A stretch of DNA of 64,000 bases, from assembly GCA_964016885.1 (NCBI GenBank), contig OZ024743.1, forward strand, positions 282,968,001-283,032,000, given 5' to 3'. Shown here piece after piece: positions 8,960 to 60,207 of this stretch. The notes under the pieces were generated by a model. The model worked only from the letters and a program-made list of their open reading frames with translations, made no database searches and was not told the origin of the DNA. Numbering within the stretch: position 1 is the stretch's first letter; every line of letters begins with the position of its first letter. The position numbers and the translations under genes are program-made. This DNA is from Eledone cirrhosa (lineage: Eukaryota).

Positions 8960-9188
8960 GCAAAGATGCATCCATAGGCGGTATGCCGGTTGAGCACTCT
9001 ATGCTCCTACGGAGCAGAGTATGATAAAATGGAAAACGAAGAATCAGTGATGCATCAGAACTCAATTTATTACATATTACAATTGTTTCACCGGCGAACA
9101 GATCGCACTTCGAGCTGTTCGCCAGGGAAACAATTCTAATACGTAATAAATTGAACTCCGATGCATCACTGATTCTTCGTTTTCCATT
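8960..9188 (-). mobile_element. Fold-back element with 3' half of a hammerhead (GAAACAATTGTA) and bulged tail hairpin
   Basis: Inverted arms 9028-9105 / 9109-9188; hairpin at 8995-9021; flanked by (TA)n. Confidence 0.75.
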
Positions 9189-9547
9189 ATATATATATAC
9201 AAATGTGAGGTATCAAAACATATCAAATATGTTTCATTTTGATGCTTCTCAATAAAAAACCTCAATAGACTTTGTCCAGAACTATAATAATTCAAAATTA
9301 AAAGATATATGTATATATAGAGAGAGAAGAGAGAGAAAGGACCATACATCCAAGAGAATACACAATATATTGTATATATATATGTGTGTGTGTGGTGTGT
9401 CAGGACAACGCCCTCAAAATTATATCAGGAGTTATGGGCCCTTGTCTTTCCATATCTATATATTTTGAAGCCAAAATCACTTGGTGCGCAGTCAGGATTT
9501 TACACCCCACTCTCCTTCTCTCTCTATATATATATATACATATATCA

Positions 9548-9883
9548 TTCATCATTTCATTTTACGTCCGCTTTTCCCTGCTTGCAAGGATGGGACGGGA
9601 ACTGATTCTGGCTTGATTTCTACAGCTGGATGCCCTTCCTAACACCAACCTCATTTACAGTGAGTGCTGGGTGCTTTTTTGCCGTGGCACCTCCACGACC
9701 ACTTTACAGTGGAATGATATGGACCCCAGTCCCTATCATCTCATTTCTACAGCTGAGTAAACTGGAGCAATGTGAAATAAAGTGTCTTGCTCAAGGAAAC
9801 AACACATCACCCGGTCTGAGAATTGAACTCACAATCTTTCGATTACAAGGCCAATGCTCTAACCACTAAGCCATATGCCTCCA
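9548..9883 (-). mobile_element. tRNA-headed CORE-like SINE family A with RTE-derived tail
   Basis: Reverse complement of 19328-19672; A box TGGCTTAGTGG, B box GAGTTCAATTC, ccttgagcaagacactt core. Confidence 0.9.
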
Positions 9884-10997
9884 TATATATATACATATAT
9901 ATATATACATATATATACATACATATATATATATACATATATATATACATATATATATATACATATATATATATACATATATATATATACATATATATAT
10001 ATACATATATATATATACATATATATATATACATATATATATATACATATATATATATACATATATATATACATATATATATATACATATATATATATAC
10101 ATATATATATATACATATATATATATACATATATATATATACATATATATATATATACATATATATATATACATATATATATATATATATATATATACAT
10201 ATATATATATATACATATATATATATACATATATATATATATACATATATATACATATATATATATATATACATATATATACATATATATATATATATAT
10301 ACATATACATATACATATATATATATATACATATATATATATATACATATATATATATATACACATATATATATATACACATATATATATATATACATAT
10401 ATATATATACATATATATATACATATATATATATACATATATATATATACATATATATATATACATATATATATACATATATATATATACATATATATAT
10501 ACATATATATATATACATATATATATATACATATATATATATACATATATATATATACATATATATATACATATATATATATATACATATATATACATAC
10601 ATATATATACATACATATATATACATACATATATATACATATACATATATATACATACATATATATACATATATATATATACATATATATATATACATAT
10701 ATATACCTACATATATATACATATATATATATATACATATATATATATACATATATATACATACATATATATATATATACATATATATATATATATACAT
10801 ATATATATATATATACATATATATATATACATATATATATATATACATATATATATATATACATATATATACATACATATATATACATACATATATATAC
10901 ATACATATATATACATACATATATATATATATATATATACATATATATATACACATATATATATATATATACATACATATATATATATATATATATA
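9884..10997. repeat. About 1.1-kb compound (TA)n/(TACA) microsatellite
   Basis: Direct sequence; source of the YI-repeat ORFs. Confidence 0.98.
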
Positions 10998-11527
10998 GGC
11001 TGTTCGTGGTTGGAAAACCAGAAATACTACTAATTAGAGAGGTATTTAATGCATTTTAAAATGCATAGTAGATACAGAAATGCAGCATGATCCATATTTG
11101 TGAAGTGGATGGGAGAAATTTGGTGTGCATTACTTTTGGGCTTGTTTTTCCAAGGATAGCCTCTCCCATCACCAATGTCATAAAGTCAGACATAAAATTG
11201 ACTACAGTATGTTTATGATAATAGATTGCATAATATGAAGTACATGTAAGAAGGTTTGCAAACTGATTGATGAATTAAAAGGACACAATATTGTACATCA
11301 GATTACACTTCTGAATACTGATGTCCACATATGTAGCTTTGCTTGAAAGTTCAGCCAGTAGACATGTAGGCAGCTGGTTGGCTTAAAGAGCCAATTCTGA
11401 AAGTACATTCTTTGAATAGTCAGTGATGGTCTTCTTTTGATATGAATAGGCAATCACTACACACAAACAATACACATAAAAAATGAACCTACTAAGACTT
11501 TGTTTTTGCATCTTAAAATATATATAT

Positions 11528-11651
11528 GGGTTCCAGGTTCAATTGAGGGTAACCACATCCTAGAACTGTTTCATTCGGAAGAAATTATCAGGGCTTTCCT
11601 GATGATTTCTTCTTCAGTTCTAGTCCTGTAGAAGTCATTTCTATATTAAAT
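11528..11651. mobile_element. Fold-back hammerhead element, same family as 59342-59536
   Basis: Plus strand: CTGATGA (11599-11605)...cagttctagtcctgTAgaag; minus strand: CTGATAA tttcttccgaat GAAA cagttctag; (TA)n on both sides. Confidence 0.8.
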
Positions 11652-12282
11652 TATATATATATATATATATATATATATTTCGATTTTACTAAGCCTCCAA
11701 TTATATATATATATATATATATATATATATATATATATATATATATTACTCACTATGTTACTCCATTTCCTTCACATCACTGCTTTACCTCATGCTCCTC
11801 ATACGTCTCTGTTTCACTCTTCTATTCTCACACTCAAACAAATTTGCTTTGCAACAAGATAACCTCCCTAGTGTTGGTGTCATTATAAAATATACTCAGC
11901 ACTCTCCAAAAAGTGGTTGATATTCAACAACTCATGGCATGGAAAACTCTTGAATCAAGTCAACGATCTGATAACCTCTCTAGTGCTGGTTCCACAATAA
12001 AATGCTCACAGTACATTCTGTAAGTGGTTGGTGTCAGGAAGGGCATTCAGACATAGAAACCATGTCAAAAAGGGTTGAGAGGACATGCTTTCTAATGCTG
12101 GTGCCACAATAAAATGATCTTGTACACTCTGTAAATTGGTTGGCATTTGGAAGGGCATCCAGCTGTAGCAACTGAAACGTATGTGAGACATTACCCCCAG
12201 CCCGTCTAGGAAGACAGTAGCTCCAATTCACTCATGTAACACATGCCAACATGAAAAAAGTGACATACAAATTATGATAATA

Positions 12283-58110: not shown

Positions 58111-59017
58111 TATCAATACTAGAGACATATTTTTAAATGTGCTTTAGTATCGTGTTTGAAGCTTTAATGTTATTGAGTTAAAATCCCTCATCAAGGAAGG
58201 TTATTTCATTTTTCACCGAAAAACTGTTAACGACTAATCACGTGGTACCGGGTTGTTAGCCTATGTTCTACACCTTACTAATATTCTACAAAAAAAAATA
58301 ACTAAGATTGTAATCCTATATCTAGAAGAGTGAACAGTCGGTTGACTTCAGAAAGTTTTCGAAATTTGAAATGTAGTCGTCCTAGCGTAAATGACTATAA
58401 CAATAGACGATCACTATAAATAATGATCTTGATGAGAGTTCAGCTTGGATAAGTGAGTTACTGAATAAGGAAAAATGGTTAGGGTTAGATATTGATAGCC
58501 TGTTTTGATGTGAAGGGTTTTAGTAGAAACGTTAGTCTTTACTTCTTCCCAAGACACAGCATACGCCACGTCAATATACATTCCCAAAGAAACTAATAAC
58601 AAAAAAGAAAAGAAAAGAAATGAAAAGAAAAAGAAAGAAAGAAAATTCCACCCGGCATTCTTCTGACTCTGACTTCTCCACCATAAATGCCAGATTGAGA
58701 GTTACAGAAAAAAACATAAAAAGAAAAAACAAACAAGACAAAAAACCCGGTACAAACTCTACCATCGCACATTCATTTATGTCGAAGTTTGTGGAAGTGT
58801 TGATTTCATCAGATAAGGAAAATGATTCGGGAAAATTTAGCATATCTACCCCCCCCCCCCTCTATCCGCTTCTTCCCCCTCTCTCTCATTCTCTCTCTCT
58901 CACATAATTTTCCATTGGAAGTTCTTCGCAGGATTCAAGCTAATCCCAAACAAAGTGACACAACTTCTTTGGTTGGATTAAGACAATTCCAAAGATTTGT
59001 GCATGTTAGTGCGATTT

Positions 59018-59179
59018 AACGTGCACATAGACATGGGTGTATGTAACGTGCACATAGACATGGGTGTATGTAACGTGCACATAGACATGGGTGTATGTAA
59101 CGTGCACATAGACATGGGTGTATGTAACGTGCACATAGACATGGGTGTATGTAACGTGCACATAGACATGGGTGTATGT
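59018..59179. repeat. 27-bp minisatellite, 6 identical copies
   Basis: aacgtgcacatagacatgggtgtatgt. Confidence 0.97.
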
Positions 59180-59341
59180 GAAAATGTGCTTTCACTCATG
59201 TAACGGGTGTACGTTCCTTTAGTATACGAGTGCGTTTAATTACCTTTTATCTAGGTATGTACGCGTGCGTGTGTGTGTGTGCGTATGTGCATAACATATA
59301 CACATGTGAGATTGTATATATATATATATATATATATATAT

Positions 59342-59536
59342 AAATGGCTTCTACAGGACTAGAACTGATTCATTCGGGAGAAATCATCAGGAAGCCCAGG
59401 GCTAGTTCTAGTCCTGTAGAAGCCATTTCTATATTAAATATTTATACTCTGCTATTTCTATATTAAATATTTATACTCTGCTATGTATTGAGTACCTTAC
59501 TTATTGTGGCTACTCCCGATTGAACGCGGGATAAAC
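59342..59536. mobile_element. Fold-back hammerhead element plus tail hairpin
   Basis: Minus strand: ggcttc-CTGATGA-tttctcccgaat-GAAT-cag ttctagtc ctg-TA-gaagcc; arms 59342-59366 / 59404-59428. Confidence 0.85.
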
Positions 59537-60007
59537 ACACACACACACACACACACACACACACACACGCATATATATATATATGTATATATATATATAT
59601 ATATATATATATATATATATATATGTGTGTATATATATATATATATATATATATATATATATATATATATATATATATATATATATATATAATAATAATA
59701 TATGTAAAAGGTAATATTGGAAGGGATATATTAGGTTAACGCTTATATATATGGGATAACAAGTTATCGTTTTAGGTAATCCAGTTAGAGGTTGTGAGTA
59801 CTCTGTACTATTTCGAGTGATCAGCAGCCTTTAGACTCACCTGATCAATGAAACAATTGTTAATACTGTAAATAAAACCCTTTTTGTACAGCCGACCATG
59901 TTATTCTTCACTCTTTCACTATATATATATATATATATATATATATATGTATGTATATATGTATATGTATATATATATATGTATGTATATATATGTATAT
60001 ATATATA

Positions 60008-60207
60008 AAACGAAGGAGTTGTGATAAGGAACCAGATGGACCATAACGCACCAGAGTACTCAATACTTAGGGTAGTAGAGTGAGTAATAGGAAATTGTAA
60101 GACCCCGACGGAAGAGCTCAAGCCGTTTCGACGGCTATTTCTGGACCATCCAGAAATAGCTGTCGAAACGGCTTGTGCTCTGCCGTCGGGGTCTTACATT
60201 TTCCTAT
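60008..60207 (-). mobile_element. Fold-back element with hammerhead 3' half and tail hairpin
   Basis: Arms 60087-60145 / 60149-60207; GAAA-cgg...ccg-TC; hairpin 60058-60081. Confidence 0.8.

Follow-up and report, generated by a model that had tools for sequence, protein, structure and literature searches.

Duplicated bulged hairpins as candidate start-site signals in fold-back insertions of Hydra-clade Penelope-like elements

A 64,000-nucleotide (nt) stretch of the Eledone cirrhosa genome (assembly GCA_964016885.1, contig OZ024743.1, positions 282,968,001 to 283,032,000; hereafter the window), AT- and microsatellite-rich within a genome of 3.0 Gb, holds seven palindromic fold-backs. They raise the question of what makes palindromes of unrelated sequence share one layout, with part of a hammerhead ribozyme, a spacer, a bulged hairpin and a tail, and why their inverted arms stop a few nt before the hairpin. 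We conclude from sequence comparison that the fold-backs are probably 5'-truncated, head-to-head insertions of Hydra-clade Penelope-like elements (PLEs) into (TA)n, in which two bulged hairpins act as RNA signals that position the start of target-primed reverse transcription. The leader of these elements reads hammerhead, site 1, hairpin 1, tail, site 2, hairpin 2 and the ATG of an open reading frame (ORF) for a reverse transcriptase (RT) with a GIY-YIG endonuclease; copies end at site 1 or site 2, usually with one of each per fold-back. New here is the conserved, duplicated hairpin as a candidate start-site ruler; the clade, recognized by motif tests, and initiation at two sites, described in another clade, were already known.

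PLEs are the closest retrotransposon relatives of telomerase. How they choose internal start sites and form inverted pseudo-long terminal repeats (pLTRs) with a one-sided tail is presented as an open question in the available text of PMC8557442 and PMC11167929. Hairpins that act as start signals would explain the long-puzzling one-sided tail. For many families, both ends can be predicted from the short motif with an error of a few bases; the motif also provides an annotation rule for the boundaries of Hydra elements and accounts for a large repeat class in this genome; with an intact young family, G5, the question becomes directly testable.

Arm ends and the bulged hairpin

The seven fold-backs fall into six high-copy families, F9, F24, F32, F47, F59 (including the copy at 11.6 kb) and F60, defined by genome searches with each direct copy, every one of which returned a large family. 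A sequence-only reading of the window had described the shared layout, and each palindrome lies where it was placed, with a bulged hairpin at the distance given. The palindromes span 9024-9192, 23629-24444, 31820-32178, 47277-47437 and 60087-60207, with two more at 11.6 kb and 59.3-59.5 kb; the hairpins start at 9020 (minus strand), 24450, 32185, 47439, 60081 (minus strand) and 59475. The reported arm-to-hairpin distances (7, 5, 6, 4 and 5 nt) are correct for exact matches in the window copies. When the family form and the shared TAT are used, the arms end at -3 (9 kb), -5 (24 kb) and -5 (60 kb) relative to hairpin 1, and at about -4 at 47 and 59 kb, blurred up to +1 by AT-rich sequence. At 11.6 kb (11529-11651, two arms, no strand assigned), the plus-strand arm, which has a full hammerhead core, does terminate at site 1 in (TA)n as proposed; the reading needed correction in that the minus strand carries the tailed arm, from which an internal deletion has removed hairpin 1.

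An assembly artefact, which the same reading had raised as an objection to itself, is unlikely, because sequence divergence between arms is 6-12% in four of five palindromes, a nested insert lies in one arm and the palindrome centres vary from copy to copy. However, public contigs from four runs contain the family, but no contig spans the whole window palindrome at 60 kb.

The peaked distance predicted from the window was borne out across the genome. We surveyed 30 best-hit loci per family and counted called arms only; the arm-calling alignment was often captured by microsatellites, so a locus without a called arm is not thereby proven armless. Called arms end at -5 in 21 of 23 F60 loci and 15 of 17 F24 loci, at -3 in 14 of 17 F9 loci, at -4 or -1 in 10 of 17 F47 loci and at -4 to +1 in 12 of 14 F59 loci, with the TAT common to the (TA)n target included, so that the true start is uncertain by 2-3 nt. 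Arm ends of the old family F32 are scattered (8 arms, -44 to 0). A position-ordered sample not selected by similarity (the first 60 loci along contig 1, 56 distinct hits) gave 15 called arms, every one ending between -13 and 0. With all loci pooled, the ends of 77 of 80 arms fall between -19 and +1; no arm ends between +2 and +50, and 3 run through the tail. Microhomology to the target is found at every arm end, and arm flanks are TA-rich in 62 of 80, bearing out the (TA)n targeting first proposed.

The hairpin has the form RCTC, inner stem, loop, inner stem, TW bulge and GAGY, usually followed by AC or GC. Exact patterns of this form matched 77,690 and 10,123 times genome-wide, compared with 6 and 6 matches for the reversed controls. 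The predicted enrichment of the hairpin next to hammerheads is likewise present: GAAAC lies 20-130 nt upstream of 35 of 56 hairpin matches, versus 13% of random windows. We compared 23 instances from 16 families, one of them from another organism; these were chosen by motif, and their pairing is therefore partly circular. The outermost pair is A-U in 11, G-C in 11 and mismatched in 1; 12 instances have U-A and 11 have C-G as the pair inside the bulge. Hairpin length ranges from 15 to 88 nt, and the inner stems are mostly complementary, with compensatory changes.

A second hairpin beyond the tail

If the hairpin positions the start of reverse transcription, as the sequence-only reading suggested, then a second hairpin at the same distance after the second start site serves as an independent test, and this comparison of families supports the suggestion. 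In six of the seven families examined, copies whose tail continues into the element have a second hairpin 3-6 nt beyond the tail end, and the seventh (F59) has a degenerate form. It was first seen in F24, where a tandem junction places motif copy 2 at 5 nt past the end point of the tailed copy, followed by ATG, and in G5, where it begins 6 nt past the tail end; G5 and a further family, G2, were found via the hairpin.

Later searches joined the tail end of each family to the 5' half of the motif alone, leaving the 3' half (TW-GAGY) unsearched. They returned 400 matches in F60, 139 in G2, 3 in F9 and 3 in F47, with 0 for every control. The unsearched TW-GAGY was present in 12 of the 15 loci viewed in F60 (2 more have a changed bulge), 12 of the 15 viewed in G2, 3 of 3 in F47 and 1 of 3 in F9, where the other two have one mismatch. 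An earlier F60 pattern had given 15 matches versus 18 in the control owing to a loop limit that was too short; 4 of these were real read-throughs and prompted the better pattern. The offset from site 2 to hairpin 2 is -5 in F24, -6 in G5, -3 in F60, -3 in F9, -4 in F47 and -3 or -7 in G2.

The two sites also appear as two classes of 3' end, separated by a tail of about 60-180 nt. In F60, 58 of 149 fragments end at -5 and 68 at the tail end; in F9, 17 of 56 end at site 1 and 35 at site 2; and in F24, 21 of 58 end at site 1 and 34 at site 2. The reference sequences stopped at site 2, and read-through copies therefore fall into the site-2 counts.

These ends bear on an explanation that we regard as very improbable, namely that one complementary DNA (cDNA) primes itself by folding back, or that a circular RNA made by the hammerhead is the template, with the hairpin serving only for protein binding and the ends set by TA microhomology. 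PMC3846280 put forward self-priming as an explanation of inverted pLTRs, and PMC4209133 put forward circular templates. Microhomology at every end would suit this account, as would the subfamily letters common to both arms, which agree at three linked positions in 14 of 14 F60 pairs (∼0.5 expected). However, self-priming does not account for an end of the copied arm at site 1, and microhomology fails a control within the F60 tail: a mid-tail CGTTAT hexamer that is identical to F60 site 2 but is followed by no hairpin has 34 junctions with (TA)n, compared with 28,664 at site 2, so that microhomology alone does not set the ends. Circular templates are opposed by the 5' ends of the short copies, which lie upstream of the hammerhead cut site and fit an uncleaved linear RNA.

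The paired hairpins extend beyond this genome. In a metagenome contig from another organism (L368, the sole locus returned), both hairpins precede the ORF, and the 3' copy stops in TA, 6 nt short of hairpin 1. Of six published Hydra consensus sequences checked by eye, Hydra-1_Ajap (sea cucumber) has both hairpins, Hydra-2_Amil and Hydra-2_Ajap have hairpin 1, Hydra-1_Obim has hairpin 2 with one wobble pair, and the remaining two have variant forms only. We found no description of a conserved duplicated hairpin as a start-site signal in open-access full text and bioRxiv.

Source elements and a candidate mechanism

Four of the six window families (F9, F24, F59 with its 11.6-kb copy, and F60) are, as identified by their links to coding sequence, the pLTR ends of ORF-bearing Hydra-clade PLEs, and most fold-backs appear to be cut-short insertions of such elements. 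The PLE origin given in the sequence-only reading thus held, as did its hammerheads, which are predicted ribozymes with cores read by eye. ORFs with RT and GIY-YIG were linked to F24, F9, F60 and F59, and also to G2 and G5; the F59 tail reads on into a Hydra-type ORF in 9 of 15 loci. The single ORF, which pairs RT with a C-terminal GIY-YIG, is about 800 amino acids long in G5 and was recovered in pieces in F24, F9, F60 and G2. The unit of one family is about 3.5 kb.

By motif tests, the elements match the definition of the Hydra clade of C-terminal endonuclease-containing (EN+) PLEs (Craig et al. 2021, PMC8557442). They share with that clade a C-terminal GIY-YIG, DKT in place of DKG (five of five genome families and L368), an RWK-like motif (RW[KTR] in F24, G5, F9 and L368, with no regular-expression match in F60 or G2) and a linker with CxCx5C, CxxC and CxH beside conserved E and N (five of five families); CCHH is absent from the endonuclease, by eye on the alignment. 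A pLTR hammerhead, (TA)n targets, an inverted 5'-truncated copy and a one-sided tail are also common to both. The published Hydra tails differ in length (30-40 nt), and the word "hairpin" has no occurrence in the available text and supplement of that paper. A Pfam scan of three F24 protein pieces returned no family, and the family assignment rests on the motifs. An initial Neptune label was dropped when the CX2-5CxxC linker zinc finger of the Neptune/Nematis clade was unmatched in every family, and one locus taken as an F59 ORF link (L252) was dropped as well, since it holds a nested copy of a different family, G5.

G5 is a very young Hydra family with many intact ORFs (for example, L282-L311; open frame of 821 codons), and its 150 best matches are 98-100% identical to the query. 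The 3' untranslated regions of F9, F59 and G2 elements carry long (TG)n/(TA)n-like tracts (L187, L188, L251 and L254-L257), and these elements may seed their own target microsatellites.

Under the reading that we favor, the PLE protein would nick both strands of a (TA)n target, as a dimer of the kind predicted in a Poseidon homologue. An RT bound to hairpin 1 would prime at site 1, and a second RT, bound to hairpin 2, at site 2; in either case 2-6 nt of UAU would pair with the target and the start would be placed 3-6 nt upstream of the hairpin concerned. Joining of the two cDNAs through their 3' ends would afterwards yield a tailless inverted arm and a direct arm with a tail. The tail would be the RNA between the two starts, and hairpin 2 would never be copied into the tailed end. 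For the shortest copies, initiation would take place on the 5' leader of the messenger RNA (mRNA) and run off at the transcript start, as in strong-stop DNA.

Several features of the short copies fit this scheme. Off-centre fold-back pairs (n = 17) comprise 11 of site 1 with site 2, 2 of site 2 with site 2, none of site 1 with site 1 and 4 others. Sharp 5' ends, positioned ∼30 nt downstream of a TATA-like box, are seen in F59, where a single 10-nt bin takes in 62 of 84, and in F60, where 131 of 149 fall within 30 nt. Hairpin 2 is missing from the short copies, as is, in those of F59 and F60, the TATA-like box upstream, and for this reason they look like dead-end products; likewise, tailed short copies would be dead ends because hairpin 2 is missing. 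The shortest copies are likely run-off products from the mRNA 5' leader.

Some read-through copies of F60 (L314, L315, L318, L320, L322, L324 and L277) and F59 (L379, L382 and L387) extend 25-100 nt past hairpin 2, in many cases reaching the ORF start, before jumping to the 5' point at which short copies of the family usually begin, and so form short tandems. These are consistent with template jumping at the RNA 5' end. Long F60 copies (L222 and L234) have a 5' hammerhead core of the U3-A8 variant, and most short F60 copies begin inside loop II and lack that core.

The sequence-only reading had gone further and proposed a separate class of non-autonomous fold-back elements, with template switching at the hairpin as one possibility. 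As a general statement, the separate class is not supported, given the ORF links, the varying palindrome centres and the dead-end appearance of the short copies, although F47 and F32, for which no ORF link was found, may yet be non-autonomous. Template switching is unneeded to explain the arm end. That the short fold-backs are self-propagating non-autonomous elements, SINE (short interspersed element)- or retrozyme-like and mobilized in trans, is in our estimation quite unlikely. Very high copy numbers and sharp 5' ends would suit such elements, non-autonomous PLE derivatives have been described (PMC8557442; bioRxiv 10.64898/2026.07.22.740005), hairpin 2 of F47 has no ORF behind it in 3 of 3 loci, and F32 yielded no ORF link in 7 extended loci. 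Yet F9, F24, F59 and F60 continue into Hydra ORFs, which does not suit non-autonomous derivatives, and each copy has its own palindrome centre. In F60, moreover, 400 hairpin-2 junctions stand against 28,664 tailed ends without hairpin 2, a rough ratio given the different patterns used. F47 itself shows pyrimidine-rich non-coding sequence after hairpin 2, with no ORF hit in 1.5 kb (L350-L352), and is a candidate for a true non-autonomous family.

Non-LTR (long terminal repeat) retrozymes, with tandem non-coding units that each carry a type I hammerhead, do not describe the window copies, which are head-to-head pairs or singles. Short tandems occur elsewhere in the genome as a minority. At G000:C2:169702714-169703471, five G2 leader units stand in tandem with a 183-nt period, forming a retrozyme-like array.

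The closest functional parallel is the Poseidon element PAc of Anolis (Frangieh et al. 2024, PMC11167929), whose protein cuts and extends both target strands in vitro and whose RT starts at two internal RNA sites bounding the tail. RNA downstream of the start is required there, and hammerhead cleavage is dispensable in vitro. Initiation in PAc lies inside an "AC-rich stem loop," and the available text defines no conserved, repeated downstream signal, whereas here a bulged hairpin follows each site by 3-6 nt. Read by eye from the lettering of a PAc figure, whose letter order is uncertain, a C-UG...CA-UU-G arrangement may lie directly behind the AC-rich stretch. The layout of the fold-backs (inverted truncated pLTR, direct pLTR, one-sided tail, (TA)n and minimal hammerhead) is a published form of PLE insertion (PMC8557442, PMC3846280 and PMC4209133). 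Inverted pLTRs of Adineta Penelope elements (Arkhipova et al. 2013, PMC3846280) and PLE minimal hammerheads (Cervera and de la Pena 2014, PMC4209133) share with the present families head-to-head palindromes, a tail that is optional, a pLTR with TATA, paired hammerheads that lie 100-700 bp apart on opposite strands and the U3-A8 core variant seen here in long F60 copies. Those two accounts differ in invoking self-priming or circular templates, and their available text names no start-site signal. The proposal made here places that signal in the duplicated hairpin.

RT-bound RNA structures that fix where copying starts or stops include the telomerase template-boundary element and hepadnaviral epsilon. 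The stringent LINE (long interspersed element)/SINE 3' stem-loop is similar in that a structured RNA bound by the RT fixes where copying begins or stops (PMC5135761). All three are single elements, whereas the present signal occurs twice, on the 3' side of the template, and copying from its own start does not include it.

A number of observations weigh against hairpins as start signals. The support is entirely positional. Canonical hairpin 2 was present in 0 of 20 F59 loci (a first pattern gave 21 matches, mostly to an unrelated repeat); its read-through instead carries, in 13 of 15 loci, only a 4-bp stem with the third pair changed and no inner stem, 6 nt after the site. Unpaired copies outnumber pairs, 59 (26 site-1 singles, 17 site-2 singles and 16 others) to 17, and pairing is therefore not obligatory. 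The concordance of F60 arms could stem from gene conversion or from subfamilies active at different times. The 5' ends of F24 are broad, and a cap-derived extra G at 5' ends is unclear (9 of 58). PAc starts at an RNA site without homology to the cut DNA (PMC11167929), whereas both sites here finish in a TAT or AT that matches the target. The folding energies do not stand out (z scores of -0.5 to -2.0), and the probability of the outer stem in context is below 0.15 for 4 of 23 hairpins, three window copies among them.

The core pairs C-G, U-A and C-G, moreover, are invariant in 23 of 23 hairpins, as would suit recognition of the motif as DNA sequence. It seems unlikely, but deserves consideration, that the motif works on DNA at resolution, with the GIY-YIG endonuclease or the RT recognizing inverted half-sites in cDNA or genomic DNA and cutting a longer intermediate 3-6 nt upstream. 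Craig et al. attribute the tail to endonuclease-mediated resolution (PMC8557442), and the tail of the D. virilis element is needed for endonuclease recognition of plasmid DNA, as cited in PMC11167929. Against cleavage of this kind, the half-site spacing varies over the full range of hairpin lengths and the compensated inner stems suit a folded single strand; in addition, the two ends of the tail are RT start sites in vitro (PMC11167929).

If the hairpins do act on RNA to place the start, a more tentative and broader proposal is possible, in which the duplicated motif is a clade-wide ruler for a telomerase-related RT. A PLE dimer would have its two subunits loaded by two hairpins of a single mRNA leader, and both strands would be primed at fixed offsets, making inverted pLTRs and the tail. 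Full-length elements would be rebuilt by run-off at the mRNA 5' end and a subsequent jump to the 3' pLTR, as in retrovirus-like strong-stop transfer. The fold-backs, in their tens of thousands, would then be failed transfers, and the rule may reach other PLE clades. If true, the hairpin would be a portable tag that directs any RNA into (TA)n.

The individual insertions in the window

The F9 insertion (8945-9192, minus strand) consists of an inverted arm (9192-9111) and a direct copy (9105 to ∼8945) that contains the 3' half of a hammerhead (GAAAC at 9089, predicted cut after 9078). Site 1 lies at ∼9024, hairpin 1 at 8996-9020, and the tail ends at site 2 in (TA)n. On the same strand, the F60 insertion (60007-60207) has an inverted arm (60207-60148) followed by a direct copy with a hammerhead 3' half (GAAAC at 60129, predicted cut after 60107), site 1 at 60087, hairpin 1 at 60058-60081 and a tail to site 2 at ∼60007.

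Three of the plus-strand insertions are compact. F47 (47277-47489) has its inverted arm at 47277-47360, followed by a direct copy with a complete hammerhead core (CUGAUGA at 47361, GAAAC at 47385, predicted cut after 47398), site 1 at 47434, hairpin 1 at 47439-47458 and a tail to site 2 at ∼47489. F59 (59343-59534) comprises an inverted arm, a direct copy and a tail to site 2; its direct copy contains a 29-bp tandem duplication (59425-59484), and hairpin 1 is at 59475-59493. The old F32 insertion (31820-32400, 3' end approximate) has an inverted arm at 31820-31927 and a direct copy with a hammerhead 3' half (GAAAC at 32121), then the tail, with hairpin 1 at 32185-32272 formed by a long inner stem and loop.

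The F24 insertion (23629-24625, plus strand) is the longest, with an inverted arm from 23629 and a direct copy at 23950-24625 that includes a variant hammerhead (CCGAUGA core at 24006, GAAAC at 24109). Site 1 is at 24444, hairpin 1 (24450-24519) has a long loop and a G-C outer pair, and a tail of ∼180 nt leads to site 2. A SINE-like insert (24139-24317) interrupts one arm, and despite it the arms of the 23629-24444 palindrome are 100% complementary over 190 and 127 nt, which suggests a very recent insertion or arm-to-arm conversion. The long F24 tail contains a pyrimidine tract ending in AG (24560-24605 in the window, and also in L182), a candidate 3' splice site of an intron in the 5' untranslated region. 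Duplicated or inverted sequence at 23153-23536 and 24820-25292 flanks the insertion, and a second palindrome lies nearby at 24861-25145.

An Rfam scan of the window, uninformative for minimal cores, gave no hammerhead match and solely microRNA-like matches on microsatellites and weak transfer RNA (tRNA) matches. The window also contains mutually related LINE-like fragments ending in (ATG/TGA)n repeats (228-2667, 21095-21710 and 39030-40812, among others) and two SINE-like families. The second of these occurs at 13.1, 15.6, 24.2, 33.5, 36.0, 42.3 and 43.0 kb. The first, at 9514-10074, 19314-19692, 21966-22505 and 27847-28272, accounts for weak tRNA matches at 9816-9873, 19338-19395, 22170-22227 and 27868-27925.

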